Positions 1 to 34,727 are shown, numbered from the stretch's first letter. The stretch: 34,727 bases of DNA from a virus (IMGVR_UViG_2585427750_000024), one strand, 5' to 3'. Notes: a model not told the origin generated them from the sequence alone. Translations and numbers: made by a program.

Positions 1-1002
1 TTACCCTCTATTGTCAAAAGGGTTCAATTCAACAGCAGCCTCTAAATGACCTGGAGCAAAATGCGCATAACGCATAGTCATTTTTATATCGCTATGCCCC
101 AGTATTTTTTGCAACACAAGAATATTTCCGCCCCGCATCATAAAATGACTGGCAAACGTGTGACGTAGCACATGAGTTAATTGCCCATCAGGAAGCTCGA
201 TCTTCGCTCTCTTAATTGCAGCGTCAAAAGCCTCATAACATGGTGAAAATAGCGCTCCTCGTTTTTGAGGAAGCATAGCCTGCAATTGAGGTGAAATCGG
301 TACAGTGCGGTTCTTCTTTCCTTTAGTTTTAACAAATGTGATTCGACCGGGCAGTACTTGAGATTGCTTTAATCCTTCAGCTTCACTCCACCGAGCACCA
401 GTCGCAAGCCCAATACGGACAACAACCCCCAAATCTTTATTCCGTGACTCATCACACGCAATCAGAAGGCGTTCAATCTCATCTACATACAGAAACGCCA
501 GTTCCTTTTCTTCCTCACGAAACTTGCGAATACCAGTCAGGGGGTTTTCACCAGACCACTCCCCAAGGCGCTTCAGTTCGGCAAAAACAGCATGTAGATA
601 TGACTGCTCGCGATTAACGGTTGCTTCACTAAGTTTTTTCTTCCCCTTGGGATTCCATTCTCCTGATAGCCTTCTTTCCCGATAAGTAGCAAACATATTT
701 TTGTCAAACTGAGAAGCAAATGGATCCCCCAGCCTGGAACAAATCGCCTCAAGTTTGACTTTGCGCTCTGCACCAGAGGACAAGGTTTTACCGTACATCT
801 CAAACCAACGAGCAATCAACTCAGAAAGACGAGGACCAGAACCATCTTGAAACTCGTCTCCAACTCTACTATTCATTAAACGGCGCTCATAAGAGAGCGC
901 CTCACTTTTTGTCGCAAACTGTTTACGAATGCGTTTTCCCGATGCCCCGTAGGGATAACATTCGCAAAGCCATTTACCTGATGGAATCTTACGAACCGAC
1001 AT
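1..1002 (-). CDS. int: Tyrosine recombinase / phage integrase, P2-type
   Basis: 333 aa; C-terminal catalytic region (HVLRHTFASHFMMRGGNILVLQKILGHSDIKMTMRYAHFAPGHLE) matches the R..HxxR..Y integrase signature and recalled P2 Int; stop codon TAA at 1-3 on minus strand; sits at prophage end next to the immunity region. Confidence 0.9.
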   Translation of the reverse strand: MSVRKIPSGKWLCECYPYGASGKRIRKQFATKSEALSYERRLMNSRVGDEFQDGSGPRLSELIARWFEMYGKTLSSGAERKVKLEAICSRLGDPFASQFDKNMFATYRERRLSGEWNPKGKKKLSEATVNREQSYLHAVFAELKRLGEWSGENPLTGIRKFREEEKELAFLYVDEIERLLIACDESRNKDLGVVVRIGLATGARWSEAEGLKQSQVLPGRITFVKTKGKKNRTVPISPQLQAMLPQKRGALFSPCYEAFDAAIKRAKIELPDGQLTHVLRHTFASHFMMRGGNILVLQKILGHSDIKMTMRYAHFAPGHLEAAVELNPFDNRG

Positions 1003-1007
1003 TTTAG

Positions 1008-1355
1008 TTACTTATCACATAAATCAAATGCAGCCTTAGTGACATCCCCCAGACTCTTTTTTAACCCTGGGGCGGCATCATTATCTAGCCAAAATGGATT
1101 ATTGTTATCTAACGGTAACGCACCAAATGTTTTACCTTTTATTCGAGCTAAACCTGTAAGCGCATATAACTTATTATCGTCAAAATTCATCACATAAGGA
1201 TTACCATCAAGACACTGTAATTGAACCTCATCAGTATTAAATGGCCATACCCCATTGAAACTCTCACGTTCAATAGTTTTAAAAGGCATTGCGACGGCGG
1301 AAAAAGAAAACATAGATAAAAAAGTAACTAATAGTTGAACCTTTTTTACTTTCAT
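1008..1355 (-). CDS. Small secreted/periplasmic protein of unknown function (cargo gene)
   Basis: 115 aa; N-terminal signal peptide (MKVKKVQLLVTFLSMFSFSAVA), two Cys; tightly packed between int and the upstream ORF; no P2 counterpart at this position. Confidence 0.5.
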   Translation of the reverse strand: MKVKKVQLLVTFLSMFSFSAVAMPFKTIERESFNGVWPFNTDEVQLQCLDGNPYVMNFDDNKLYALTGLARIKGKTFGALPLDNNNPFWLDNDAAPGLKKSLGDVTKAAFDLCDK

Positions 1356-1384
1356 ATCATTACCTCAATTTAGCTCAAGTAAGA

Positions 1385-2035
1385 TTACAAATTAAAAAAC
1401 ACCCTAGAAATGGCACCGCCTACCAAAACCCCTACGCAGATAAAGAATATTATTTCTTTTGGATAAAGTCGGATTAATTCTGAAGCACGAAGTCGAACTT
1501 CTGGTAAGGCCGAACTCTCTGTGTGACTTGATGCCGATTGTTGCTCTAACCACGACAATGCAGACTGTAACTGAGAACGAGTAAGATCGTTTAAACGTCC
1601 TGTACCGAAATTGATATGGCAATACCGCAGAAGTTTTTGTCGAAGTCCACAGTCTTCACTGTTACGTAGTAATAAACTTACAAGAGTCTTACAGGCATCA
1701 TGATCTTTACATCGCTCAAGCATTGCATGCAGAAAACTCTCCGCTGTTTTATATTGATTTACTGTCATATCATCAATACCAGCTACACCAATCTCCGCAT
1801 GTACTTTTTGCCAAATAATAAACGCTTCAGTATTGCTAGCTTCTGCAATAGCAGCAACCAAGCTATTTAGCTCCTTACGCTGAGCCTTAAGCAAAGGGCG
1901 ATCGTCATCATCATTATTCGAAGGGATTGCGATATTGACGGTATGAGAACCATCATATCGCTCTATCTGAATATTCTTTTCGTGAAAATCACGCCCAGCA
2001 ACGCGATTGTTTGAACCGTTTGAGTTGACGGCCAT
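1385..2035 (-). CDS. C-terminally membrane-anchored protein co-transcribed with the repressor; candidate superinfection-exclusion/abortive-infection factor
   Basis: 216 aa; strong SD (GGAGGTGAC) immediately before ATG, 15 nt after the repressor stop; single C-terminal TM helix (IIFFICVGVLVGGAISRVFF); N-terminus shares the motif SNNRVAGRDFHEK with the repressor C-terminus. Confidence 0.55.
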   Translation of the reverse strand: MAVNSNGSNNRVAGRDFHEKNIQIERYDGSHTVNIAIPSNNDDDDRPLLKAQRKELNSLVAAIAEASNTEAFIIWQKVHAEIGVAGIDDMTVNQYKTAESFLHAMLERCKDHDACKTLVSLLLRNSEDCGLRQKLLRYCHINFGTGRLNDLTRSQLQSALSWLEQQSASSHTESSALPEVRLRASELIRLYPKEIIFFICVGVLVGGAISRVFFNL

Positions 2036-2050
2036 GTCACCTCCCTACTA

Positions 2051-2455
2051 TCACCTACCCTTAGTTTCGTTATAGTCACGACCAGCGATACGGTTATTAC
2101 CACCAGAAATATTTAACTCACGTCCTGATGGCTGAGTTTCCTTTTCACTGATCGCACCTTTTAAAGCCCCGATCACCGCGTTTTTCACATCTAACGAAGC
2201 TGCTCGAAAGCGAGTAATCAACTCCTGCTCATCATCGTTATAAGTTTCAGGTGAGTGAATTCCCAACACAACATACTGAACATCAAGGCCAAAACGAGAC
2301 AGCGCTGCCAAATACGCAGCATCAGGAAAGCTATCTCCTTTCTCATATCTAAGCTGAGTTAGCTTTTTGACTCCACCAATGTCGCTCATGGCAACTTGAC
2401 TAAGTCCCAATCTTTCCCTTTCCTCACGCAACCGCTGACCAATATCATTTTTCAT
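2051..2455 (-). CDS. HTH (XRE-family) immunity repressor, P2 C-like
   Basis: 134 aa; N-terminal HTH (LGLSQVAMSDIGGVKKLTQLRYEKG); divergent from cox-like genes, adjacent to int as in P2; C-terminal tail GGNNRIAGRDYNETKGR. Confidence 0.75.
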   Translation of the reverse strand: MKNDIGQRLREERERLGLSQVAMSDIGGVKKLTQLRYEKGDSFPDAAYLAALSRFGLDVQYVVLGIHSPETYNDDEQELITRFRAASLDVKNAVIGALKGAISEKETQPSGRELNISGGNNRIAGRDYNETKGR

Positions 2456-3339: not shown

Positions 3340-3618
3340 ATGACTAAAGACCATGCACAAGGTGTATTTATCCGCTTTATTGATTTTCGCGGTGAACTGT
3401 TATTACGCGCATCAGCTATTGACGGAGTAGTTCCATCTGAAAAAAACGCAGCTACCTACGTTTATCTGAACGGTACACGCCTGACTGTAGAGCTTCCGTA
3501 CCAGATCATTCGCGAAATAATTAGCGAAGCCGAAAAATCTCGTCAGGTTAATGGCGATGAACCCTATATCGAGATTATCTGCATGGATTCAGAAGCTGAA
3601 ATTCAGAAAGCAGATTAA
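3340..3618 (+). CDS. Hypothetical early protein
   Basis: 92 aa ORF, tightly spaced in the same operon. Confidence 0.5.
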   Translation: MTKDHAQGVFIRFIDFRGELLLRASAIDGVVPSEKNAATYVYLNGTRLTVELPYQIIREIISEAEKSRQVNGDEPYIEIICMDSEAEIQKAD

Positions 3619-3629
3619 AGGGTGTTGCG

Positions 3630-3872
3630 ATGGATAAAGAATATAAAACTCTCATCAACAAAGCACTTGAGCGTTTTTATTTTCGTTTAAGCGCATCCGG
3701 CGCTCATTCAGAACGTGCAGCCCGTGACTCATTGACTAGGGCTATCCGGAGTCTGTATGACGTAGCTTTTTACGCTGACGATCTGGATGCACTTAATGAA
3801 CTTTCTGAGCTTATCTGCGCCGCAGAATGCGGGGAGCATATTGAGCCGTACAAACTGGGAAATATCGCATGA
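3630..3872 (+). CDS. Hypothetical early protein
   Basis: 80 aa ORF; its stop overlaps the ATG of the next small ORF (ATGA). Confidence 0.5.
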   Translation: MDKEYKTLINKALERFYFRLSASGAHSERAARDSLTRAIRSLYDVAFYADDLDALNELSELICAAECGEHIEPYKLGNIA

Positions 3873-3982
3873 GTATATTTATATCCTGGATTGTTCTTAT
3901 TATTTCGGTGGTTTGTGCAATTGGTATTATGCGAATTATTAATTCAGTAAAAAAGATTGAACGCTTTTTCACTGGCGAATAA
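3869..3982 (+). CDS. Small hydrophobic membrane peptide (37 aa), not in the ORF track
   Basis: Hand translation: MSIFISWIVLIISVVCAIGIMRIINSVKKIERFFTGE; one TM helix plus charged tail; ATG overlaps upstream stop; lies in an AT-rich patch. Confidence 0.3.
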   Translation: MSIFISWIVLIISVVCAIGIMRIINSVKKIERFFTGE

Positions 3983-4595: not shown

Positions 4596-4985
4596 ATGAT
4601 TGACGCTCATGACTTCACAAGATGGGTGCGCACACAGGACACCCGTCTGGCTCCCGTTCTTCAGGGATTATTTGATCTCTACATCCGTGGTCGTGACAAC
4701 AGAGCACGCACCACAAAACCGGAGAATGCAGACACCCTTTATTTCACAGTAGACGACTGCTACCGCGTGGACTTCACACCACACGGGCTGGCGTTGCACT
4801 GCCTGACACCACACGGCGAATCACTGCTGGCGTATTACGACTCCCCGGCCTCCATATTTGCGGCAATGCTGGCGCATCGCACTGCTGGCGGGTGTGCCTC
4901 GCTGATTGAATACTCCGCTGAATTTAACCGCCTTTCCGCCCTCTTCTCACAGGAGTGGCAGCGCGTGACGGGATACCAGCCATGA
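4596..4985 (+). CDS. Hypothetical protein translationally coupled to replication gene A
   Basis: 129 aa; stop TGA 4983-4985 overlaps the ATG 4982-4984 of A. Confidence 0.5.
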   Translation: MIDAHDFTRWVRTQDTRLAPVLQGLFDLYIRGRDNRARTTKPENADTLYFTVDDCYRVDFTPHGLALHCLTPHGESLLAYYDSPASIFAAMLAHRTAGGCASLIEYSAEFNRLSALFSQEWQRVTGYQP

Positions 4986-7822
4986 GTGCGTTTGCATGGA
5001 GCTGGAATGAACCACGGCCAGCCATTGATCCGGCCAGATTTACGGAGCGCAGGCAGGAAACTGAAACCGACCTGCAACGCGCCATCCGTTACTACCTTGA
5101 GGCAAACAAAAGGGCACAGGAAGAACAGGAAGCGAAGGAAGAAGCCTTTTTCGCACAATCCACCGTGGGTAAAAAACTCATGGCATCCCTTGAGGAAGCC
5201 GGACAGCGTGAAAAGCTGGCACAAAGCATCATCAGCAAGCGTCAGGCAACAGAACAAGACCCGGTGGCCCGTGCTTTTGCCACACTGAAGGTGCTTCCCG
5301 TTTATCTGCGTGAACCTCTGAGCCGCCACCTCTCTTTTCTGCGCAAGAAGCAGGAAGCCGATCGTCAGAAAGGCAAAAAGAGCTGGCAGGCTGAACGCTA
5401 CGCGCGCGGAACCCTGCGCAAAATATTCGAACGTCTGGACCGCACCGACAGCCGCTGGCTGACACCGGGCTATCGCTCCCTTGCCGGACGCGAACGCCTG
5501 GACGATTTGCTTTACCTGCCGCAGCTCAACAAACACCAGATACAGACGCTGGCCACCATGACGGCGGCGATGTTCAGTGGCACTTTTGAAAAACTCTGCG
5601 ATGGCTTTGGCGCGACCGATGGCGAGCTGACCATGGATGTAACGCTGAAGGCGTATCAGATGCTGGCCCGCATGGCGTTACACCTGCACGCTATGCCTCC
5701 ACATTATGACGCTCTGACAACAGACAAAGACCGGAGGAATGAACCGGACACGGAGCTGCTGCCGGGCGCAATCCTTCGCCTGACCTGTGCGGAATGGTGG
5801 AAACGCAAACTGTGGCTGTTACGTTGCGAGTGGAGAGAAGAACAACTCCGCGCCGCCTGTCTGGTTTCCAGAAAAACATCACCCTATCTGAGCCAGGACG
5901 CGTTAAGCGAGTTTCGCGCACAGCGCGAGAAAACACGCGATTTCCTGAAAAGTTTCATGCTGGAAAACGAAGACGGGTTCACGATTGATCTCGAGACAGT
6001 GTATTACGCGGGAGTAAGTAACCCGATTCACCGTAAGGCAGAAATGATGGCCACCATGAAGGGGCTGGAACTTCTGGCCGAAGCCCGTGGCGACAGAGCG
6101 GTGTTTCTGACTGTCACCTGCCCGTCAAAATACCACGCCACAACAGAGAACGGTCATCCGAATCCCAAATGGAACGGGGCCACCATGCGCGACTCCAGCG
6201 ATTACCTGGTTAACACGTTTTTTGCGGCGGTCCGCAAGAAACTGAACCGCGACGGCCTGCGCTGGTATGGCATCCGCACGGTGGAGCCTCACCATGACGG
6301 CACCGTGCACTGGCATATGATGGTCTTTGCTCATCCGGAAGAAATCGACACCATTGTGTCCCACACCCGCGATATTGCCATTCAGGAAGACCGCCACGAG
6401 CTGGGCAATGATATTACTCCGCGCTTTAAGGTGGAGTATGTCGACGGCTCAAAAGGCACGCCAACCAGCTACATCGCCACCTACATCGGAAAGAACCTGG
6501 ACAGCCGCGCCGTGGATGGCATCGACCCGAAAACGGGCAAGCCACGCGTTGACCACGAAACCGGAAAATCAATGGCCGAGAGCGTGGAACGCGCCATCGG
6601 CTGGGCACGCCTTCACCGGGTCCGCCAGTTCCAGTTCTTTGGCATCCCCTCCCGTCAGGTATGGCGTGAACTCCGCCGCCTTGCCAGCCAGATGGCACGC
6701 AACCCGGAAGGCCCACAACGGCTGAAGGATGATGCAATGGATGCGGTACTCGCTGCCGCTGATGCCGGGTGTTTTGCCACCTACATTGAGAAACAGGGCG
6801 GCGTACTTGTTCCACGCAAAGACTACCTGATTCGCACCGCCTACGACCTCGCAGATGAGCTGAACGATTACGGCGAACAGAGCGTACAGATTTACGGGAT
6901 CTGGTCACCACTCATCGGGGAATCCTCCCGTGTGTGCACGCACTCGGATAACTGGAAGCTGGTAAGACGTAAACCGGAAGCGGAAGACAGCACCCGCGAA
7001 AATGGTTTTGACCTTCAGGGCGGCCCTGCCGCCCCTTGGACTCGTGGCAATAACTGTCCCCGTGTACAGGAAACGGACAACAACGGGACAGAACAGCCGG
7101 AAGAAAGGCCAGCACCGTGGCCGCAGCTTCCTGACGGCGTTGACGTGAATGAATGGATGCGCTCACTGAAACGGCACGAACGCCGGGCGCTGATGCGTTC
7201 GCTGCGTGACAAACAGGCAAAAAACAGCAGTGATGAAATGCAGAACTGGACACAGAGCCGCAAACAGCCACGGCCTTTGCCTGATAACCACGAGTTACTC
7301 GCTAAAGAATGGCGGGAGTCTGCTGAATCTCTCGGCCTGCATATCGGTGAACAGCAGATGCAGCACCTGTTACGGGGCGGCAGTCTGTACGTTGACGGCA
7401 GCATCATTGCACCGCAGGGATTTGAAATTGTACGCAAACCAGATACCCGCCCGGACAGCCGAATCACGCAACTCTGGCAGCGCCTGAGCCGTAATCACGG
7501 CGTAAGCAGCACGGAGATCCGCCATAACCCGGTCGCCAGCTATCTGGAACAGCTGGGGGCATCAGACCCCGAAGCCGCCGCACACCTGGCATCCACACTT
7601 CAGCAGGACCAGAACACCATGAAAACCCCCGTTACCGTGCTTTCTGACATGCTGCGCGCCATCCGTGACGCAGTGCACGCACAGAGAATCAGTGAAACCA
7701 CTGAACGCGCCCACCGCAAAGCAGACCTGCTGCGGGGTAGCCTGACCAGTGGAAACAAAAAACAGACAGAAACGGGACTCACAAATCCCGTAAATGAGCA
7801 AAAAACGTGCCGCGATATATGA
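4955..7822 (+). CDS. A: Replication initiation protein A (rolling-circle HUH endonuclease), P2 gpA-like; probable true start 4982
   Basis: 955 aa; motifs TCPSKYH and EPHHDGTVHWHMMVF match recalled P2 A; ~200 aa longer than P2 A with a C-terminal extension. Confidence 0.9.
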   Translation: MAARDGIPAMSAFAWSWNEPRPAIDPARFTERRQETETDLQRAIRYYLEANKRAQEEQEAKEEAFFAQSTVGKKLMASLEEAGQREKLAQSIISKRQATEQDPVARAFATLKVLPVYLREPLSRHLSFLRKKQEADRQKGKKSWQAERYARGTLRKIFERLDRTDSRWLTPGYRSLAGRERLDDLLYLPQLNKHQIQTLATMTAAMFSGTFEKLCDGFGATDGELTMDVTLKAYQMLARMALHLHAMPPHYDALTTDKDRRNEPDTELLPGAILRLTCAEWWKRKLWLLRCEWREEQLRAACLVSRKTSPYLSQDALSEFRAQREKTRDFLKSFMLENEDGFTIDLETVYYAGVSNPIHRKAEMMATMKGLELLAEARGDRAVFLTVTCPSKYHATTENGHPNPKWNGATMRDSSDYLVNTFFAAVRKKLNRDGLRWYGIRTVEPHHDGTVHWHMMVFAHPEEIDTIVSHTRDIAIQEDRHELGNDITPRFKVEYVDGSKGTPTSYIATYIGKNLDSRAVDGIDPKTGKPRVDHETGKSMAESVERAIGWARLHRVRQFQFFGIPSRQVWRELRRLASQMARNPEGPQRLKDDAMDAVLAAADAGCFATYIEKQGGVLVPRKDYLIRTAYDLADELNDYGEQSVQIYGIWSPLIGESSRVCTHSDNWKLVRRKPEAEDSTRENGFDLQGGPAAPWTRGNNCPRVQETDNNGTEQPEERPAPWPQLPDGVDVNEWMRSLKRHERRALMRSLRDKQAKNSSDEMQNWTQSRKQPRPLPDNHELLAKEWRESAESLGLHIGEQQMQHLLRGGSLYVDGSIIAPQGFEIVRKPDTRPDSRITQLWQRLSRNHGVSSTEIRHNPVASYLEQLGASDPEAAAHLASTLQQDQNTMKTPVTVLSDMLRAIRDAVHAQRISETTERAHRKADLLRGSLTSGNKKQTETGLTNPVNEQKTCRDI

Positions 7823-7898
7823 AGCGCGCACAAAACAGGCAAAAGCGGGATTTAAAAATCCTGTAACCGATTAATTAATCAACACAAGGAAAAGCGAC

Positions 7899-8858
7899 AT
7901 GAAAATTTGTATCGACGACGGCTCCACCAACATCAAGCTGGCATGGACTGAGAACGGCGAACGCCGCAACGCCATCAGCCCGAACAGCTTCAAGTCGGAA
8001 TGGTCTGCGCCGTTCGGTGGCACGCAGCCCGCGAACTACATGCTTGATGGCGTGCGCTATGGTTTTGATCCGGTCAGCGATCGCTTTGTCCAGACGACCG
8101 ACACGCAATACCAGTACAGCGATGTGAATATAATTGCCATTCATCACGCGCTGGTCAAATCAGGCATCACACCACAGGAAGTGGATGTGGTTGTCACCCT
8201 GCCACTGAGCGAGTATTTCGATACAAACGCACAGCCGGACATGGCCAACATCAACCGCAAAAAAGCGAACGTCATGCGCCCGGTGGAGTACCAGAACGGC
8301 GAAGCATTCACTATCCGTAACGTACGGGTTATGCCTGAATCCATTCCGGCTGGCTTTAAGGCACTGGCTGACATGAGTCCGTTTGAATCCCTGCTGATTG
8401 TGGATTTGGGCGGAACCACTCTGGATGTGGCAAAGGTTCAGGGGCAACTGGCAGGTATCAGCCAGGTGTTTTGCGATCCACACGTGGGCGTTTCTCTGAT
8501 GGCCGATGCCGTACTGTCGGTGATGGCCACTAACGGTATGCGCACCAGTCACCACATCGCCAATACCATTATCGAACATCGCCATGATGAAGCCTGGCTG
8601 CGCCAGCACATCCACAATGACGCGCATTACGCCAGCCTGATGGCGGTTATTCGTGAAAAGGAAGAAACACTGAAACAACGCGTGATCCGCGCGCTGGCGG
8701 GTTTTTCGGGTTACGGGCGGGTGATGGTTGTCGGTGGAGGGGCGGAGATTGTGGCACCCGCTATCCGCGAAGCCTGCGGAGTTAATGCGACTTTCATCGC
8801 GGACGGGGTGCCACAGTTTGCTCTGGTTAATGGGCTGTACGCAATGGACAAGGAGTAA
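7899..8858 (+). CDS. parM: ParM/StbA-like actin-like segregation ATPase (type II partition)
   Basis: 319 aa; MKICIDDGSTNIKLAW, ISPNSFK.EW, VMPESIPAG, IVDLGGTTLD, VMVVGGGAE, ALVNGLY all align with recalled plasmid R1 ParM. Confidence 0.85.
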   Translation: MKICIDDGSTNIKLAWTENGERRNAISPNSFKSEWSAPFGGTQPANYMLDGVRYGFDPVSDRFVQTTDTQYQYSDVNIIAIHHALVKSGITPQEVDVVVTLPLSEYFDTNAQPDMANINRKKANVMRPVEYQNGEAFTIRNVRVMPESIPAGFKALADMSPFESLLIVDLGGTTLDVAKVQGQLAGISQVFCDPHVGVSLMADAVLSVMATNGMRTSHHIANTIIEHRHDEAWLRQHIHNDAHYASLMAVIREKEETLKQRVIRALAGFSGYGRVMVVGGGAEIVAPAIREACGVNATFIADGVPQFALVNGLYAMDKE

Positions 8859-8862
8859 ACCA

Positions 8863-9174
8863 ATGACGACTCCAACCAGACGGATAAGTTTCTATCTGAA
8901 GCCCACCGCCGTCAAGAACGAAGGAGAAGCATGCGCCTGGCTGGACAGCCTTACACCAGAAGCCCGCAAAAGCGGCCAACGCGTGGCTTTTCTGGCCGGG
9001 CTGGCACTTCTGAAAATGAATCCGGCAGAGGCTTATCGACTGGCTGCATGGGCTGGTGATGAAGCGTTATCAGTGACACAAACCAGGACAGAACGCCCCG
9101 CATCACAGCCAGTATCAACCGCACAGATAACCAGTCAGATGGCCGGAAATATCCGGGCGTTATTTCCTGAATAA
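8863..9174 (+). CDS. parR: ParR/StbB-like centromere-binding adaptor
   Basis: ATG at 8863, in frame with track ORF 8728..9174, 4 nt after the parM stop; RISFYLKP...LDSLTPEARKSGQRVAFLAGLAL and C-terminal IRALFPE resemble recalled R1 ParR. Confidence 0.7.
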   Translation: MTTPTRRISFYLKPTAVKNEGEACAWLDSLTPEARKSGQRVAFLAGLALLKMNPAEAYRLAAWAGDEALSVTQTRTERPASQPVSTAQITSQMAGNIRALFPE

Positions 9175-9182
9175 CACAACAT

Positions 9183-9200
9183 CAGGGCGAGTTCGCCCTG
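9183..9200. repeat. Palindromic element CAGGGCG-AGTT-CGCCCTG, copy 1, 3' of parR
   Basis: 7-bp perfect inverted repeat read directly; no T-tract; same arms recur at 9841-9866. Confidence 0.5.
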
Positions 9201-9237
9201 CTCTCCACCTCAGAACATAAACAAGGAGAACGACTTA

Positions 9238-9828
9238 ATGAGCGAAATCAACTATCAGGCATTACGTGAACGTTATTCACCTGTGCCAGTACCGAAATGC
9301 CCTATTTGCGGCGAGGAAATGTCAATTCAGCGAATATCTGGAGCACAGGTTGTTTATGCCTGCTCCGGTTATGGTGATGATGGAGATTTCAAAATTGGCC
9401 AAACTCTTGCCGACGAACATTATGAAAAATCACGCGTAACAGTGTTGGATGTCGGGGATCCTGAAGTATTGGCGCTACTTGATTGGCTGGAAACCAAAGA
9501 CAACCGAATCGCTGAACTGGAAAAAATCGCCACTGACTATGCACTTAAATTCCAGAAAGCACAGGACGCATTAAAGTATGCCGCTTTGCTGCATAGCAGG
9601 ACGGCGCAACAAACAAATAATTTTGCAGTATCGCTTCCGGACATAAGCGAATATTTCATTAATGACGTATTTCAGCCCTTGCGATACGAGCGGGATGTTG
9701 AAAGAGCCATCATAAAGGCTGGCGGAAAAGCATTGTGGCAGGAGAAACACGAGGACAGAACGCATCAGTCCTGCGATGTAAATCGTGGATGGTTTAGCCC
9801 ACTGACGACAGATAAAAATAACACCTGA
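9238..9828 (+). CDS. Hypothetical protein with N-terminal Zn-ribbon-like CxxC...C and central coiled-coil-like region
   Basis: 196 aa; CPICGEEM...YAC; RBS AAGGAG upstream; located in the hotspot between A and cos. Confidence 0.55.
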   Translation: MSEINYQALRERYSPVPVPKCPICGEEMSIQRISGAQVVYACSGYGDDGDFKIGQTLADEHYEKSRVTVLDVGDPEVLALLDWLETKDNRIAELEKIATDYALKFQKAQDALKYAALLHSRTAQQTNNFAVSLPDISEYFINDVFQPLRYERDVERAIIKAGGKALWQEKHEDRTHQSCDVNRGWFSPLTTDKNNT

Positions 9829-9840
9829 TCCCCCTCAAAC

Positions 9841-9866
9841 CAGGGCGATAATCGCGCATCGCCCTG
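9841..9866. repeat. Palindromic element CAGGGCGAT-N8-ATCGCCCTG, copy 2, 3' of the 196-aa ORF
   Basis: 9-bp inverted repeat with the same arm sequence as 9183-9200, followed by CTGC in both cases. Confidence 0.5.
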
Positions 9867-10266
9867 CTGCACAATAGTGCACAAGTTTGCACAATTTTTT
9901 TGAACGACTTTTTACCCTTCCGGCCCGCATGGCGGCTGGATCCGTCAAGGATCCGTGCGTGCACAAAAAAACGCGCTTTTTCTGCGCGCAGGTGACGGGG
10001 GAACAGCCCGCGTTTCAGGGGGTAAATAGCATCCCCTGAACGATGTCGCAGCGACACAACAGAATGGCTGTATTTCTCACGCTGAGCGTGAAAAAGACGT
10101 GAGGGCTTTTGATTTGATGGGTGGCAGATAAGGCCGTCAAAATCGCACTGAGGCGGCGAGAACATGCAGTCAACGCGGTGGGATTGCGTAAGAGTCTGAC
10201 CGCCGATGATGACAATAAGCAGAAAAGCGTCGTGAAATTATCTGATTGATACAGGAGCTGGAGAGT

Positions 10267-10291
10267 CGGGGCATAAATTTTTTATGCCCCG
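10267..10291 (-). terminator. Hairpin 3' of Q (CGGGGCATAAA-TTT-TTTATGCCCCG), candidate terminator
   Basis: 11-bp perfect inverted repeat with GC-rich base and A/T-rich loop, 27 bp downstream of the Q stop; no long U-tract after the stem. Confidence 0.4.
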
Positions 10292-10317
10292 GCGAAGCAG
10301 CAGACAAGCGAAGCGCG

Positions 10318-11364
10318 TCAGGATGTGGGCTGGGTATCTAGCAGTGCGTAAGGGTTAAAGCGGATCACCTCTTCGCCAAGCCAGTCATTGATGTGCTTCA
10401 TGGCCTCCATGACGGGCATCAGCTCGTTAATTGCGTAAACCCGCGCGGCCTTCTCCACATCACCAAACGCACTTTTTTCGCCCGGCATCGCCCCCATCAG
10501 TTGCGGCGGAACGCGGTGCGCAGCCAGCACATCATCACGGGATGCCGCCTTAACATTCATGAACTCATCCTTTGCAGTGATCTGCTGGAACGGCAAAATT
10601 TGCACACCTTCTTTGCCCCCGTTGGGCGCATGGATGAGTACGTTTTTAAACGCACCACCACCACGCGCGCCCTGTAACGTTTCTTTCAGGGAGTCCATGC
10701 TTTCGCGGTTTACCTGCGCTGCACCGATGTAGATGATGCACCCGGCGTGGGATCCGTTGTCGTAGTACAGTTTTCTGAACATGTCCGCCGAATGAGAAAG
10801 GCTGGCCGAGAGTAATGCGCCAAGATATTCCGGCATGCCGTAGATTTCCTGGTTAATATCCGGATTCATCAGGTGGCACACTTTGCCAGGGCGAAACTGG
10901 AACGCGTCCTTGCCATCCTGCACATACCACCATGATTCAAGATCGCTTCCGCGTCGCATGTATTTCGCCAGGGCGTGCCGTAATTTAAGCGGTTCGCCGA
11001 GCATATTGCTTCTAAGCTCAAGGAATGCGTTACCGAACACAAACCAGTCCAGCGCCAGCGCCGAGAAATCCTGCCGGGAAAGCAGCGGGTGCGGGATGTA
11101 GCAACCGAGTAATACATTGCGCTTAAAGTAAAGCGCAGACTGATGCCAGGACGTTTGCCGGGCTGCTCTTGCCAGACCGTACCAGTCCACCGGGGTTTCA
11201 TACCACCGTCCGTTATCAGCACAGTACATATTGTCCAGCAGGTCATGCCCGGTCAGGCGATAAGGACCATCAAATGTGAATGCACTGAGCGATGATTCTT
11301 TCCTGAGCGCATCAGCGAGATCAATGCGTGAACTCATGCGCACTTTTTTATTTTTTCTGCTCAT
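10318..11364 (-). CDS. Q: Portal protein, P2 gpQ-like
   Basis: 348 aa; size and position match P2 Q, adjacent to and co-oriented with the terminase gene. Confidence 0.85.
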   Translation of the reverse strand: MSRKNKKVRMSSRIDLADALRKESSLSAFTFDGPYRLTGHDLLDNMYCADNGRWYETPVDWYGLARAARQTSWHQSALYFKRNVLLGCYIPHPLLSRQDFSALALDWFVFGNAFLELRSNMLGEPLKLRHALAKYMRRGSDLESWWYVQDGKDAFQFRPGKVCHLMNPDINQEIYGMPEYLGALLSASLSHSADMFRKLYYDNGSHAGCIIYIGAAQVNRESMDSLKETLQGARGGGAFKNVLIHAPNGGKEGVQILPFQQITAKDEFMNVKAASRDDVLAAHRVPPQLMGAMPGEKSAFGDVEKAARVYAINELMPVMEAMKHINDWLGEEVIRFNPYALLDTQPTS

Positions 11365-13115
11365 CAGAACTCCATAACCGTGAAACGCTCGTTTTCTCCT
11401 TCGCCGCCAATCGGTTCGTTAATGACAGCAAGCATGGTTGCCCACGCAAGGTCGCCGTGGCTGATCCCCCTCGCGCGGTCCGTTTCGTAAGTGATAAAGC
11501 CGCCCGGTGTTTTCACCTTACGCACGGCGTTAAAGGCCGCGACCAGCTCGCGTTCGGCGCGATCGTATTCCCACCGCCCGGCACGCATTATTTGCAGCAT
11601 TTTCAGTACCAGCGACCGTTTTGATGACAGCGTGAAGGTGTACGGAATAGCAGCAGGGAAAAACCGTTTCACTATCTGATAAACAGCCTCCCCGTTCCCG
11701 CCCGTCACATCAATGCCGATGTGTTCCACGTTGTAGCGATACGTGAACTCTTCAATGACTCTGGCCTGTTCTTCAAACTCCAGCCCCTGAACGCGTCGCG
11801 TCTCCACCGTTCGAAAACGGCCACCAGGAACAGCCGGAGGAACCACCACGGACACAGCGCCGCTGTCGCCGTTGCCACTACTGCCGTTTGCGTCATACCC
11901 AATCCATACCGGACGATTCCCCATCGGGCGGGGAGCAAAAGGTTTCCAGTCTTTCCAGTCGTCGTATCCGTCAACACCGCAGCCAATCAGGATATTCAGG
12001 TTAAATGCCGATTCCCCTTCGCGGACAAACTCACACATATAGAGATTGAGGAACTCGTCTTCGGTGTTTTCATCACGAATTTCGTCGATATCGGTGTGTT
12101 TCCAGCCGTGATTGACCACATCTTCCAGCGTGACAATTTGCCGCCACGTCCGGTCAGGGCAGATAAGCCCGTTATGCAGCGTTTTCCAGTCCACAGAAAA
12201 ACGCTGGCGTTTATGCGTGGCCTTTTTCTCGTTCCAGCGGTCGCCGTTCCAGTAGGCGTATGCCTCGTGCGTTTCGGTGGATGGCGTGGAGAAGTAGGTG
12301 CGCCGCAGTCCGCTGAGGGTTGCCATAGCGCCAGCCACCTTGCGCAGTTCAGCAAAGCGACTGACCCAGAAAAATTCATCAAAATAAAAATTGCCCGTAT
12401 AGGACTGTGCCGACGCAGCAGAAGTGCCGAGAAAATGCAGCTCTGCGCCGTTGGAGAGGATGATTTTATCGCCCCCTTTCAGCTCCACATCAACTTCAGC
12501 CGCGGCCTTCTGAATAATGCTTTTAAACTGGAACGCCTGACGACGCGACGCAGACAAAAAAATCTGGTTACGCTGGTAAGGTTGCGCCACATCGTCACGC
12601 AGCGCCATCAGCAGAGCTTCCTGTGCAAAATACCAGGTCGCCCCAATCTGTCGGGATTTCAGGATCATCCTGTTACGTATCCCGGCTTCCCTGCAAAGGG
12701 TCAGGGAGTCAAACCAGCCCCGCTGATGCCACTCCAGCCTGCTGATGATTTTTTCCCGCAGTGCGGCAATCTGTTCCGGCGTGAAATGATTTTTGAGTTT
12801 TTTCGCCCGGCCTTTCTTTCCTGTGACCGTCGCATCCGGCTGGCCATCATGCAGTTTTTTAAGCTGCCGGGTCAGCAGGTCTATTTCCTTAAAGTCACCG
12901 CCTGTTTTATTCTGTTTTTCAGTAAGCTGGATGAGGCGCGCATCGATGGACTGCGTGACACGCTGCACGGGTGGCGTTTCATCCCACTGGTCGCGTTTTT
13001 TCCACGCATAAATCGTGTTCGGGTTTATTCCCATCAGACGTGATATTTCTGCGGGCGGATAACCCTGCCAGTAAAGTTGCCGCGCACGCTGGCGCACAAA
13101 AGCGTCCTGAATCAT
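11364..13115 (-). CDS. P: Terminase large (ATPase) subunit, P2 gpP-like
   Basis: 583 aa; N-terminal HTH-like MIQDAFVRQRARQLYWQGYPPAEISRLMGINPNTIYAWKKRDQWDE; P2 P-Q leftward operon arrangement. Confidence 0.9.
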   Translation of the reverse strand: MIQDAFVRQRARQLYWQGYPPAEISRLMGINPNTIYAWKKRDQWDETPPVQRVTQSIDARLIQLTEKQNKTGGDFKEIDLLTRQLKKLHDGQPDATVTGKKGRAKKLKNHFTPEQIAALREKIISRLEWHQRGWFDSLTLCREAGIRNRMILKSRQIGATWYFAQEALLMALRDDVAQPYQRNQIFLSASRRQAFQFKSIIQKAAAEVDVELKGGDKIILSNGAELHFLGTSAASAQSYTGNFYFDEFFWVSRFAELRKVAGAMATLSGLRRTYFSTPSTETHEAYAYWNGDRWNEKKATHKRQRFSVDWKTLHNGLICPDRTWRQIVTLEDVVNHGWKHTDIDEIRDENTEDEFLNLYMCEFVREGESAFNLNILIGCGVDGYDDWKDWKPFAPRPMGNRPVWIGYDANGSSGNGDSGAVSVVVPPAVPGGRFRTVETRRVQGLEFEEQARVIEEFTYRYNVEHIGIDVTGGNGEAVYQIVKRFFPAAIPYTFTLSSKRSLVLKMLQIMRAGRWEYDRAERELVAAFNAVRKVKTPGGFITYETDRARGISHGDLAWATMLAVINEPIGGEGENERFTVMEF

Positions 13116-17943: not shown

Positions 17944-18085
17944 CCAACCCACATGGGGAAACCTCGGAATATGGGGCGACCGCCTTCTGGATGCACTGGA
18001 AACCTGTAACGCGGATAAACGGGCCATTGCTGAACTGGATAAGAGAATAGCCGAACTGACACACCAGACGGGAGTAACACAATGA
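17804..18085 (+). CDS. o-spanin lipoprotein (Rz1/LysC-like), embedded/overlapping the i-spanin
   Basis: Lipobox LVLLTGCAG, Pro-rich mature region; track start GTG 17774, ATG 17804 more likely. Confidence 0.55.
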   Translation: MNAPTLCLTLVLLTGCAGTQNAPRPAPSVRLIPQTLTMPVTPPPFPDQPTWGNLGIWGDRLLDALETCNADKRAIAELDKRIAELTHQTGVTQ

Positions 18086-19959
18086 CCAGTAAGAACTTTG
18101 CACTGATTACAGCCATGACACAGGCTGAACTGACTCAAAAGGTGAATGAACATCTTGCGAAAGGGTGGCATCTTCAGGGGGAGACGCGGGTTGCCTACGA
18201 ACCCGGCACCCCGTGGTATCTAATGCAGGCAATGGTGGCCGATGGCACTACAGACATCTCACCTGATTCCCCCCAGCACGGCAGCGTGCCGGAGTGGTAT
18301 TACGTGGTGGTACTTGCTGGTCAATCCAATGCCATGTCATATGGTGAGGGAATGCCGCTGCCGGATTCTTACGATGCGCCCCACCCACGCATTAAGCAAC
18401 TGGCCCGTCGCAACACAGTGACTCCCGGTGGTAAAGCATGCGCATTTAACGACATCATTCCGGCAGATCACTGCCTGCATGATGTTCAGGATATGAGCGC
18501 ACTGAATCACCCGAATGCAGACCTGAGCAAAGGGCAGTATGGCTGTGTCGGACAGGGCTTGCATATTGCCAAACGCCTGTTGCCTTACATTCCACAGAAT
18601 GCCGGGATTTTACTGGTTCCATGCTGTCGTGGTGGTTCGGCATTCACCCAGGGCGCGGAGGGGACATTCAGCGAGTCCACAGGAGCCAGTCAGGATTCGG
18701 CTCGCTGGGGGGTGGGTAAACCTTTATATCAGGACCTGATTTTGCGCACGAAGGCCGCATTGCAGAAAAACCCAAAAAACATGCTGCTGGCCGTATGCTG
18801 GATGCAGGGCGAATTTGACATGAGCGCCGCTACGTACTCACAGCAACCTCCGCTGTTTGCGGCCATGCTGAAACAGTTTCGTGCGGACATTACCGAGTTT
18901 AACACGCAGTGTCATGGAGGCAGAGCGGCAAGTGTGCCATGGATTTGTGGTGACACGACGTATTACTGGAAAAACACCTACGGCACGCAGTACGACACCA
19001 TTTACGGGGCGTACAAAAACAGGGAGAGCGACAACGTTTTCTTTGTGCCATTCCTGACCGATGGTAGTGGCAACAATACCTCCACCAACGCACCAACGGA
19101 AGATCCGGATGCTGCAAGTGAGGGATATTACGGTTCGGCATCCCGAACGAACAAAAACTGGGTATCATCAAATCGCCAGACGCATTTCAGTTCATGGGCG
19201 CGCAGGAGCATTATTCCGGATCGTATGGCAACCGCTATTCTGAACGTAGCCGGTCGCACCTTAGCCTTCATCAGTGGTAAGGCACCGGAAATCAAACCCT
19301 CGCCCGGCGGCAACACGCCATCGGGTCCGTCTGCAGATACGTCCGTTCGCACAATCTCCCTGCTGCCGGCAGCCGGAGAGGCTGCTGCGCAGGGCTGGAG
19401 CATTAAGGATGGCGGAATTCAGTTGTCAGATGGTGTATTTAAGATCACCAAGCAGAGCAATAAAACCTGGTCCCTGACGCATCCGGTGGATGACGCAATT
19501 ACCCTGCTGACACAGGGCGGCAGACTGACCTGTAAGTTCCGCCTGTCAGGCGCACTGACCAACAATCAGTTCGGGCTGGGGATTTATCTGTATACGGATG
19601 CTCCCGTTCCTGATGGTGTGGCGATGACGGGTACCGGTAATCCGTTCCTGATGTCGTACTTCACTCAGACCACTGACGGCAGAGTGAATCTGATGCATCA
19701 CAGGAAAGCCGGAAACACGAAGCTGGGGGAGTTCGGCGATTACGGTAACGACTGGCAGACGCTGGAGCTGGTGTTCACCGCCAGCAGTGCCACGGTTACT
19801 CCGAAACTGAATGGAGTGGCTGGCCCGGCATTCCAGGTCATAAAAGACAGTCTGACACTGGGGCTGAATGCACTGACGCTGACGGATATTACCAAAAATG
19901 CAACGTATGGCGTTGAGATAGAAAGTCTGGTGCTGGAAATAAATAGTCCTGCAGCGTAA
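18082..19959 (+). CDS. Prophage NanS-p-like sialate O-acetylesterase (DUF1737 N-domain + SASA/SGNH esterase domain)
   Basis: 625 aa; N-terminal MTSKNFALITAMTQAELTQKVNEHLAKGWHLQGE (DUF1737-like) then VVVLAGQSNAMSYGEG (GQSN motif); start overlaps o-spanin stop; no counterpart in P2. Confidence 0.65.
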   Translation: MTSKNFALITAMTQAELTQKVNEHLAKGWHLQGETRVAYEPGTPWYLMQAMVADGTTDISPDSPQHGSVPEWYYVVVLAGQSNAMSYGEGMPLPDSYDAPHPRIKQLARRNTVTPGGKACAFNDIIPADHCLHDVQDMSALNHPNADLSKGQYGCVGQGLHIAKRLLPYIPQNAGILLVPCCRGGSAFTQGAEGTFSESTGASQDSARWGVGKPLYQDLILRTKAALQKNPKNMLLAVCWMQGEFDMSAATYSQQPPLFAAMLKQFRADITEFNTQCHGGRAASVPWICGDTTYYWKNTYGTQYDTIYGAYKNRESDNVFFVPFLTDGSGNNTSTNAPTEDPDAASEGYYGSASRTNKNWVSSNRQTHFSSWARRSIIPDRMATAILNVAGRTLAFISGKAPEIKPSPGGNTPSGPSADTSVRTISLLPAAGEAAAQGWSIKDGGIQLSDGVFKITKQSNKTWSLTHPVDDAITLLTQGGRLTCKFRLSGALTNNQFGLGIYLYTDAPVPDGVAMTGTGNPFLMSYFTQTTDGRVNLMHHRKAGNTKLGEFGDYGNDWQTLELVFTASSATVTPKLNGVAGPAFQVIKDSLTLGLNALTLTDITKNATYGVEIESLVLEINSPAA

Positions 19960-25561: not shown

Positions 25562-26139
25562 TGACATTCAGAATGAGTGAACACTCACGGACCATAAAAA
25601 TTTATAATCTACTGACCGGAACCAATGAGTTTATTGGTGAAGGTGATGCATACATTCCACCTCATACAGGTCTGCCTGCAAACAGTACCGATATTGCCCC
25701 GCCAGATATTCCGGCTGGCTTCGTGGCCGTTTTCAACAGTGATGAGGCATCGTGGCATCTCGTTGAAGACCATCGGGGTAAAACGGTTTATGACGTGGCA
25801 TCAGGGGACTCGTTATTTATTTCTGAACTCGGTCCATTACCGGAAAATGTTACCTGGTTGTCGCCGTATGGAGAGTATCAGAAGTGGAACGGCACATCCT
25901 GGGTGAAAGATGCAGAAGCAGAAAAACTGTTTCGGATAAGGGAGGCGGAAGAAACAAAAAACAGCCTGATGCAGGTAGCCAGCGAGCATATTGCGCCACT
26001 TCAGGATGCCGTAGATTTGGATATTGCAACGGAGGAAGAGGCATCGTTACTGGCTGCATGGAAGACATACCGGGTATTGTTGAATCGTGTTAATACAGCG
26101 GTAGCAGCGGATGTTGAGTGGCCAGTCGCCCCACAATAA
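25561..26139 (+). CDS. G: Tail fibre assembly chaperone, P2 gpG-like
   Basis: 192 aa; C-terminus ...[23 protein letters not shown] resembles the recalled P2 G end; start overlaps H stop (ATAATGA). Confidence 0.75.
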
Positions 26140-26182: not shown

Positions 26183-26788
26183 CTATTTATACAATACAAC
26201 ACCGCTCTTTTTAGTTATATATGTGCAGTTCGATGGTATATCTTTATTTATAAAAGACATTGCACCTATTTTTACATTATCCCCAATTTTACGTGATAAT
26301 CCAATGATGCAACAATTAGCTCCGATATCAACGTTACTACCAATTTTTACTCTTGAACCAGGCATGTCACCATCTATCTGTCCAATGGTAGTATTCTGTC
26401 GTAACACCAGATTTTCACCAGCATCAACAGCAAAATGAACAACAATTCCAGCATGATGGGGAATTGTTAACCCTTTTCCAATATTTGCGCCCAATCCAAT
26501 TTCACAACCAAATTTGTTAATTATTTTACTGTTTAACTTTTTGGCTGCTTTCTTATGTAATTTATTACCATTAATATACATTTCGTTAGCCAACCGCCAC
26601 CAGAAAAGGAAATTCCGGTTACGCTGTTTTTTCTCTCTTAAAAGCCTCCAGATATCCATACGTTTCCGCCGAATTACTTCATATTTCCAGAAGTTTTTTA
26701 AATTAGTAGAGTCCCCAAATAAAACAAAGTGAATTGCCATTAAGTAAGACAGCACGATAATCTCCTTAATTATTATTTCAGACCACAC
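26183..26788 (-). CDS. Hexapeptide-repeat acetyltransferase (serine-acetyltransferase/WcaB-like left-handed beta-helix), moron
   Basis: 201 aa (GTG start; ATG alternative at 26740); repeated [LIV]-G-x4 hexapeptides (GCEIGLGANIGKGLTIPHHAGIVV, IGSNVDIGANCCIIG, IGDNVKIGAMSFI); AT-rich island 26140-26911 at the P2 Z/fun position. Confidence 0.7.
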   Translation of the reverse strand: MWSEIIIKEIIVLSYLMAIHFVLFGDSTNLKNFWKYEVIRRKRMDIWRLLREKKQRNRNFLFWWRLANEMYINGNKLHKKAAKKLNSKIINKFGCEIGLGANIGKGLTIPHHAGIVVHFAVDAGENLVLRQNTTIGQIDGDMPGSRVKIGSNVDIGANCCIIGLSRKIGDNVKIGAMSFINKDIPSNCTYITKKSGVVLYK

Positions 26789-34144: not shown

Positions 34145-34419
34145 GTGGGAAACAATAAAGTGAAATTAGGAAGAAATGATAAGTGCTGGTGTAATTCAGG
34201 ACTTAAGTATAAAAAGTGCCATCTTGGTCGAGATCGTGAAACTCCGGTATCCAAAGCCGAGGCACTGAAATTTTCAAAGTCTCTCTCGCAGAGAAAGGCA
34301 TGTTATGCGCCAGCATCCATGCACGAAGATTGTGATAAACGCATCGTTCAGGCGCATACGATATCTAAGAGCAGTAGCCTTAAGGCGATCGCCGACTCCA
34401 GCAATCACGTCATGGGGGT
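34145..34419 (+). pseudogene. SEC-C-motif protein gene truncated by IS insertion
   Basis: GTG start; N-terminal KCWCNSGLKYKKCH (SEC-C-like metal-binding motif); reading frame runs into the IS terminus at ~34420, so track ORF 34145..34597 is chimeric. Confidence 0.4.
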
Positions 34420-34727
34420 TGGATTTGCCCCTATATTTCCAGACACCTGTTATCACTTAACCCATTACTGGCCTGCTGCCGCAGATATTCCCGTGGCGAG
34501 CGATAACCCAGTGCACTATGCGGATGCCATTCGTTATAATGCTCGAACGCCTCTGCAAGGTTCTTTGCTGCCGTTAACCCGTCTGGTTTGGGCATGATAC
34601 TGATGTAGTCACGCTTTATCGTTTTCACGAAGCTCTCTGCTATGCCGTTACTCTCCGGACTCCGCACCGCCGTGTTCTTCGGTTCAAGCCCCAACATCCG
34701 GGCAAACTGCCGTGTTTCATTAGCCCG
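34420..34727 (-). mobile_element. IS3-family insertion sequence (IS2-like), partial: terminal inverted repeat and 3' end of transposase orfB; continues beyond window
   Basis: Element terminus begins TGGATTTGCCCC at 34420; minus-strand ORF 34431..34697 encodes ...[24 protein letters not shown]..., typical IS3-family (IS2 InsD-like) C-terminus; truncated by window end. Confidence 0.7.

Follow-up and report, generated by a model that had tools for sequence, protein, structure and literature searches.

The window analyzed here (the whole stretch of viral DNA IMGVR_UViG_2585427750_000024, 34,727 nucleotides) is a P88-like prophage of Escherichia coli (genus Xuanwuvirus, Peduoviridae; P2 family) carrying two adjacent genes, parM and parR (parMR), that by their sequence constitute a genuine type II partition cassette of the R1 kind (ParMRC). 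In this phage lineage parMR is a fixed part of the backbone, linked to the P88-type replication gene A, and the variable hotspot starts only after parR, at approximately 9175-9200. We tentatively propose, with slightly less than even confidence, that positions 7752-9174 form a complete, selectively maintained type II module that would segregate the transient circular form of the phage genome. The module and its edges are composed of the following elements.

7756-7793, plus strand: block 1 of the candidate centromere (parC), direct-repeat copy 1, an A-rich tract with the imperfect palindrome CGGGACTCACAAATCCCG (7773-7790)
7794-7828, plus strand: core between the blocks, read from the sequence, with the stop codon of gene A (7820-7822) and GC-rich GCGC..GCGC around CGATATATGA
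7829-7866, plus strand: block 2 of the candidate parC, direct-repeat copy 2, an A-rich tract with the palindrome CGGGATTTAAAAATCCTG (7846-7863)
7899-8858, plus strand: parM, actin-fold segregation ATPase of 319 aa with StbA_N and ParM C-terminal domains
8863-9174, plus strand: parR, predicted centromere-binding adaptor of 103 aa, PF10784
9183-9200, plus strand: GC-rich hairpin CAGGGCGAGTTCGCCCTG bounding the conserved module on the right, without a T-run on the plus strand

A preliminary description, made from the sequence of the window, had identified the 319-aa protein as a full-length homolog of R1 ParM, and database comparison bears this out. The protein matches the Pfam domains StbA_N (3.7e-82) and ParM C-terminal (1.3e-68), and residues 2-316 align with R1 ParM (PDB 1mwk) with 46% identity (E-value 1.2e-92). 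The nucleotide-binding motifs, on which the same description had staked the assignment in advance, are all present in the alignment: DDGSTNIK, MPES (with the catalytic Glu in PES), DLGGTTLD, and GGGA are invariant in comparison with R1-type, IncF-type, and D6 ParM.

The downstream gene starts 4 nt past the parM stop codon, with a ribosome-binding site AAGGAG 7 nt upstream. Its product is a member of the ParR family, as had been claimed, with a length of 103 rather than 104 aa. It matches PF10784 (Plasmid_stab_B, ParR/StbB; 3.1e-23, residues 6-76) and PHROG 2515, a family of partition proteins (1.7e-57). The ribbon-helix-helix fold that had been suggested for its N-terminus stays putative: ParR has no sequence match among PDB structures, and the AlphaFold2 monomer model, with helices at residues 20-61 and 86-100 and a disordered linker, is of low confidence (predicted local distance difference test score 57). 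The ParR alleles (52-97% identity) show a clear pattern of constraint. Three parts are retained by all of them: the strand RRISFYLKP (R6-P14), presumably the one that reads DNA, the helices up to approximately residue 63, and the C-terminal NIRALFPE. Residues 64-92 or so, which form the linker, are hypervariable. At the C-terminus N96, I97, and P102 are invariant, and L100 and F101 are nearly so. This corresponds to the layout expected of a ParR protein, in which a flexible linker joins a DNA-binding head to a tail that would bind ParM. Covariation of the ParR alleles with the upstream sites proved uninformative, as RRISFYLKP is invariant and the differences between alleles fall in the linker.

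Both genes are maintained by selection. The open reading frame (ORF) of parM is intact in all 88 related loci and that of parR in 87 of them. The ratio of nonsynonymous to synonymous substitution rates is 0.016-0.17 for parM and 0.15-0.36 for parR, and the variable positions of parM comprise 186 third codon positions vs. 42 first and 27 second ones. Thus, purifying selection on parM is strong. None of the plasmid ParM proteins in the 5000 best-scoring plasmid records is more than 52% identical to the prophage protein, and all matches at 95% identity or higher are prophages within records labeled as plasmids. In 50,697 phage records the sole other phage homolog of ParM belongs to the plasmid-prophage D6 (47.5% identity), and no ParM was found in the records of other Peduoviridae. 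Because plasmid ParM proteins are so distant and D6 provides the only other phage homolog, parMR is, to judge from these identities, an old and constrained phage lineage, with no recent acquisition from a plasmid.

The 1455-bp parMR region matches 14 phage records with 94-99.7% identity. All of these phages are P88-like, and they include P88, P884B11, PhiR44_2, phiSM, Chuche, 520873, and 503458. The same DNA is present in 1308 of 5426 complete E. coli genomes (approximately 24%), so that about one genome in four carries the module, including many enterohemorrhagic strains of serogroups O26, O103, and O111. The distribution of parMR follows that of the P88-type A gene: the two occur in the same 14 phage records, and in E. 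coli 1320 genomes contain the P88-type A gene vs. 1278 containing parMR at a coverage of at least 80%. The Prokaryotic Genome Annotation Pipeline (PGAP) names the two products "plasmid segregation protein ParM" and "plasmid partitioning/stability family protein," and PHROGs 691 and 2515, both "partition protein" families, cover both genes. Hence the expectation of the preliminary description, that an integrase-encoding P2-like phage should not carry a partition system, fails on the frequency of the module in E. coli, on its presence in every one of the 14 P88-like records, on these existing names, and on published work (PMC9122126).

Indeed, the ParM and ParR proteins of P88-like phages have already been annotated and mentioned in print, and neither the observation nor the idea of plasmid maintenance is new. 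Approximately one quarter of P2-like phages were reported to carry a putative partitioning system that might permit maintenance as a plasmid (Rousset et al., 2022; PMC9122126), and the phiSM paper classifies the gene as a "fitness" factor (PMC6456863). What is added here is the status of parMR as backbone, its divergence from plasmid ParM together with the selection acting on it, the pattern of constraint in ParR, and a candidate parC made of two palindromes.

The backbone status follows from the comparison of related loci, in which parMR is constant while the sequence after parR varies. In the 88 loci, at least 24 unrelated classes of sequence occupy the first 300 nt past the parR stop codon, and the distance from parR to the portal gene Q ranges from 485 to more than 3600 nt. 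The cargo after parR differs among P88, 569R5, pZ1323PEC0009-2, and the locus L012; in a Hafnia prophage (L013) there is no cargo between parR and Q, and parMR is kept. On the right, the window remains homologous to P88 and PhiR44_2 up to 9200; for 520873 the homology reaches only the stop codon of parR. The assignment of the cassette to a defence hotspot between A and cos is therefore half right: parMR does lie between gpA and cos/gpQ, at the site of tin and old in P2, and it is not hotspot cargo. The gpA-gpQ locus was analyzed by Rousset et al. (2022; PMC9122126), and the P2 genes old and tin and other cargo of this locus share the map position of parMR, but these are variable defence genes, whereas parMR is constant. 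In surveys of the P2-family defence hotspot, parMR can serve as its left boundary in this lineage and should be counted with the backbone rather than the cargo.

Two observations were made on unusual loci. In two IMG/VR sequences (L071 and L088, at approximately 3460-3880) a divergent parR allele is immediately followed by a parM fragment that starts at about residue 97, apparently left behind when two par modules recombined at the hotspot border. A scan of contigs for parMR yielded three loci only, including a P88-like prophage with 98% identical ParM on a 226-kb contig labeled Vagococcus sp. (L005, NZ_JBQPOM010000071.1). Such a label is implausible for an enterobacterial phage and probably results from contamination or mislabeling.

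The region upstream of parM contains a 38-nt direct repeat, 7756-7793 and 7829-7866, whose copies are 79% identical and 73 bp apart, each consisting of an A-rich tract followed by a palindrome. Block 1 overlaps the last codons of gene A, and block 2 ends 35 nt upstream of the parM start codon. A-rich repeats had earlier been noticed here at about 7754, 7798, and 7828, along with a palindrome GGATTT-AA-AAATCC at 7848-7861, and a parC-like site overlapping the 3' end of A had been suggested. The repeats are exact matches to CAMAAAACRKR at 7756, 7799, and 7829, the palindrome is present as part of the longer imperfect palindrome 7846-7863, and the parC-like site is a reasonable candidate, with block 1 lying over the end of A. 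The CAMAAAACRKR motif was derived from the very sites that it then matched, and its count in the window is not above chance (15 observed vs. 10.9 expected), so only its local clustering is notable. The palindromes are more specific: CGGGA-N8-TCCYG occurs in the window at the two block sites only, with 0.1 sites expected and none of 100 shuffled sequences reaching this count.

Both palindromes are present in 84 of the 88 related loci, with the exact spacing of 73 bp in 81 of these 84. The part that stays constant across loci is the half-site CGGGAT/ATCCCG, which gives the palindrome the form CGGGAT-N6-ATCCCG. The four variant loci just break the pairing of the stem, with no compensatory changes. 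In the P88-like phage of Hafnia, whose ParM is 94% identical, identity is 70% at third codon positions of parM, 72% in the block region, and 58% in the upstream 3' region of A. Its gene A stops inside palindrome 1, and the spacing of 73 bp is preserved through two compensating 1-nt indels. Since the homology with this phage begins at block 1 and the 3' region of A diverges, block 1 travels with parMR and not with A. A repeat search found no further repeat array near parMR. We regard the two CGGGAT-N6-ATCCCG palindromes, 73 bp apart, as the best parC candidate, a putative assignment to which we give about an even chance.

The location of the prophage is chromosomal. In complete E. coli genomes parMR was found at 1454 chromosomal places vs. 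2 on plasmids, and an identical copy of the prophage in the window is integrated beside yecA in the chromosome of E. coli O103 RM8385. Its only replication gene encodes gpA, a rolling-circle endonuclease (Phage_GPA), and the PGAP annotation of the identical RM8385 prophage contains no plasmid-type Rep gene or replicon. Among 72,556 plasmid records, a P88-like circle standing by itself occurs just once. The seven matches in PLSDB comprise five large replicons or mislabeled fragments, one linear piece riddled with IS1, and one clean record. As candidate episomes, CP061244, CP054248, and similar records were rejected as megabase or large replicons, and NZ_CP049283.1 as a linear IS1-riddled fragment. 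The clean record, pZ1323PEC0009-2 (NZ_CP148288.1), is a circle of 34,461 bp containing the whole phage and no host genes. An identical copy of this phage is integrated in a sister isolate, and an integrated copy may coexist with the circle in the strain itself, whose chromosome is absent from the collection. Phage-sized plasmid records exist also for P2-like phages without a PGAP-annotated partition gene. Such records can be artefacts, because the 37-kb circular "plasmid" NZ_CP019275.1 (L096), rejected as an episome, consists of a P2-like prophage with the host genes smpB, ratA, and bamE and is an assembly artefact.

Thus, the distribution gives no support to the phage-plasmid maintenance offered in the preliminary description, and a stable plasmid-prophage lifestyle is not supported. 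Among the marks of a phage-plasmid, we found neither an extrachromosomal prophage, apart from the single clean circle, nor a plasmid-type initiator with an origin. Nor is the cassette, as in plasmid systems of the R1 type, carried by a low-copy plasmid. A separate observation concerns a Hok/Gef toxin gene near ogr and attR, beyond the right end of the window (3552-3692 in the RM8385 locus L098 and 1291-1431 in L097). The same Hok, with at least 95% identity, is encoded by P88, P884B11, PhiR44_2, Chuche, and phiSM, so that the two stability loci of R1, parMRC and hok/sok, both have homologs in the P88-like backbone. As a sign of a plasmid lifestyle hok was discarded as non-specific, being carried by approximately 190 lambdoid and Shiga toxin (Stx) phage records.

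The ParMRC locus of plasmids R1 and NR1 (parA/stb) has the same order of upstream repeats, parM, and parR, a 46% identical ParM with the same nucleotide-binding motifs, a ParR of the same family PF10784, and an upstream region that is likewise A-rich on the sense strand. However, the two ParR proteins are only 27% identical, and the C-terminal NIRALFPE of the P88-like protein differs. In R1, two sets of five 11-bp iterons flank a promoter, whereas the P88-like module has two 18-bp palindromes 73 bp apart and no consensus promoter, and it sits in a chromosomally integrated phage rather than in a plasmid. The P1-like D6 also encodes a StbA-type ParM homolog (47.5%) with a ParR-family gene downstream, but D6 is a 91-kb extrachromosomal plasmid prophage with TTCTCA-type iterons upstream, whereas P88-like phages integrate.

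A resemblance in logic is provided by srpMRC of the SXT/R391 elements. It stabilizes the excised, rolling-circle-replicating integrative and conjugative element R391 and is accompanied by a toxin-antitoxin stabilizer; its small centromere srpC, in front of the motor gene, has only four 13-bp repeats, arranged as two pairs (PMC4489591). As in the P88-like prophage, a type II-like partition system here resides in a normally chromosomal element, and the layout of the small candidate centromere recalls srpC more than the ten 11-bp iterons of the R1-type locus. The similarity is of logic and not of family: SrpM and SrpR are presumably no more than distant relatives of ParM and ParR, and SXT/R391 is a conjugative element rather than a phage. 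A further parallel is AlpA/AlpC of the prophage CGP3, where an actin-like filament and a DNA-binding adaptor act on circular phage DNA; the system is induced early, the adaptor binds upstream of its own operon, and both are needed for efficient phage replication (PMC4446434). It differs in phylum (Corynebacterium), phage type, and actin-like family, and its demonstrated role is replication efficiency rather than inheritance.

Scans of the window and of the Hafnia phage revealed no plus-strand sigma-70 promoter or terminator between A and parM; as a positive control, the same promoter scan detected the R1-type par promoter between the iteron sets. Two hand-picked promoter candidates were dropped, TGAGCA-15-TATATG within the core and TTTAAA-17-ATTAAT past block 2; they agree with the consensus at only 7-8 of 12 positions and lack conservation. 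A promoter-like site on the minus strand (8158..8130), considered as the source of an antisense RNA ending at the blocks, was also rejected, as it needs an allele-specific Ile codon and approximately two such sites are expected by chance. Because no promoter or terminator separates A from parM, the simplest reading is that parMR is co-transcribed with A from the early operon, probably without a strong promoter of its own. Expression of parMR would then coincide with the episomal state of the genome that follows infection or induction, and the repressed lysogen would not express the module.

The proposed segregation of the phage circle would proceed as follows. ParR dimers would bind the two palindromes upstream of parM, whose distance of 73 bp corresponds to about seven helical turns, and the conserved C-terminal helix of ParR would capture the ends of ATP-ParM filaments. 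The growing filaments would push paired circular phage genomes apart. Because the element is normally integrated, the substrate would be a transient circle, present after infection before lysogeny is established and again after excision, when gpA makes several copies. As a result, both daughter cells would retain a copy of the phage until integration or packaging, in the same way as proposed by the logic of srpMRC in SXT/R391. If this is correct, the blurred distinction between integrative elements and plasmids seen in SXT/R391 extends to phages, with consequences for the gain, keeping, and curing of prophages.

Several points weigh against this proposal. P2-family phages without parMR lysogenize well, so that the module may confer little benefit, or its benefit may come during lytic growth instead. 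Our literature search turned up no functional study of the P88-like parMR. A weak promoter regulated by ParR could exist despite the lack of a consensus, which would allow expression in the lysogen. The candidate centromere consists of two palindromes only, vs. the ten 11-bp iterons of R1, and in most alleles both blocks resemble intrinsic terminators of the minus strand. Finally, in 58 unique close relatives the upstream region shows no excess conservation (nucleotide diversity 0.050 vs. 0.056 at synonymous sites), and only the more distant Hafnia comparison is informative on this point.

A bolder version, which we consider somewhat doubtful, is that the P88-like ParMRC with its minimal two-palindrome centromere is a phage cytoskeleton for monomeric circles that, together with hok, would give the phage a regulated plasmid-like phase. 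Such a phase might represent a carrier state, improve lysogenization, or confer resistance to curing after excision. The cytoskeleton would be the first in a temperate phage of Gram-negative bacteria, and about one quarter of E. coli genomes would be concerned.

A rather unlikely alternative is positioning in the lytic cycle, similar to AlpA/AlpC: ParMR produced together with gpA would spread the circles for replication or packaging, with no role in inheritance. P2-type phages replicate by a rolling-circle mechanism to monomeric circles, which are the packaging substrate and are plasmid-like for a ParMRC machine. The position of parMR directly downstream of A, with no promoter or terminator detected in between, agrees with this scenario, and CGP3 provides a precedent for such a system in phage replication (PMC4446434). 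On the other hand, most P2-family phages do without ParM; a lytic role and a role in inheritance cannot be separated by sequence, and the two are not mutually exclusive.

The nature of the blocks themselves may be questioned. They could be tandem Rho-independent terminators or RNA hairpins for leftward transcription, the real ParR site being elsewhere or absent. On the minus strand each block indeed forms a hairpin followed by a T-rich run; 7791..7772 was flagged as terminator-like in the window and both sites were flagged in Hafnia, and the minus-strand fold of block 1 has an energy of -10.2 kcal/mol (z-score -2.4). However, block 2 of the window has no such fold (z-score +0.96), and no leftward gene ends at the blocks, because the DNA to their right is antisense to parM. 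Moreover, the stems CGGGAT/ATCCCG are the same in both copies and both lineages, without compensatory changes and with their spacing preserved, and no other repeat array was found near parMR. We consider this explanation unlikely.

It is quite improbable that the module lets P88-like phages persist as facultative low-copy plasmids, in addition to or instead of integrating. The cassette is complete, the idea has been put forward (PMC9122126), and the plasmid-prophage D6 uses a homologous ParM; there is also the clean circle pZ1323PEC0009-2, and many P88-like phages carry Hok/Gef. Against this stand the overwhelmingly chromosomal location of parMR and the single stand-alone circle among the plasmid records, the presence of an integrase, the position of the prophage beside yecA, and the lack of an annotated plasmid-type replicon. 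Besides, hok is equally common in integrating Stx phages, and the P2-like "plasmid" record that was inspected is an artefact. Least of all, and with very little probability, the cassette may have been repurposed for defence, exclusion, or incompatibility directed at incoming plasmids, satellites, or phages: it does lie in a hotspot that carries old, tin, and many defence systems (PMC9122126, PMC13586616), but PADLOC has no family matching ParM, ParR, or the neighboring Ead-like ORF at E-values up to 0.1, which leaves the exclusion function of the preliminary description unsupported, the cassette is invariant across loci rather than variable, and its ParR strand and upstream repeats differ from those of R1-type, IncF-type, and D6 systems, so that cross-binding to known plasmid centromeres is not expected.

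The genes around the module confirm a P2-type prophage, with the window beginning at the integrase stop codon and the early genes running up to gpA.

1-1002, minus strand: int, integrase, in P2-type context
2051-2455, minus strand: helix-turn-helix repressor
4955-7822, plus strand: gene A, P88-type replication endonuclease gpA (Phage_GPA 8.9e-130, aa 194-518)
9175-10317, no strand assigned: variable hotspot and cos region, here with one Ead/Ea22-like ORF
9238-9828, plus strand: Ead/Ea22-like ORF (PF13935, 2.4e-31)
9877-9892, plus strand: terminator-like site after the Ead-like ORF
9989-9971, minus strand: terminator-like site
10318-11364, minus strand: portal gene Q
11364-13115, minus strand: terminase gene P, with the late genes beyond

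The gpA protein has 955 aa by its ORF vs. 946 aa in the PGAP call. The thirds at either end of the protein are peculiar to the P88 lineage; in A genes of other P2-family phages only the catalytic core aligns (nt 831-2133 of the query), with approximately 64% identity.

Several other genes of the window are of separate interest. Two small genes between the integrase and the repressor (1008-2035, minus strand), encoding a DUF2511 protein and a 215-aa "membrane protein," occupy a second accessory slot of the prophage; neither has a PADLOC match. Between the lysis and tail genes, 18082-19959 (plus strand) encodes a 625-aa protein with DUF1737, a SASA sialate-O-acetylesterase-like domain, and DUF6645. 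PADLOC gives no match for it either; it presumably resembles NanS-p esterases, which are known from Stx prophages, and is carried here by a prophage of the P2 family. In the tail-fiber assembly region, 25904-26102 (plus strand) matches the Rfam small RNA IS009 (192 bits), and a hexapeptide-repeat transferase moron (26183-26788, minus strand) adjoins this match. At the right end of the window, a SEC-C-motif ORF (34145-34597) matches the first part of a "YecA family" cargo gene that encodes 380 aa in RM8385; in the window it ends early, and 34431-34697 (minus strand) reads like the C-terminus of an IS3-family transposase. The early end of the SEC-C ORF and this resemblance together suggest an insertion sequence near 34145-34727 in this copy of the prophage.

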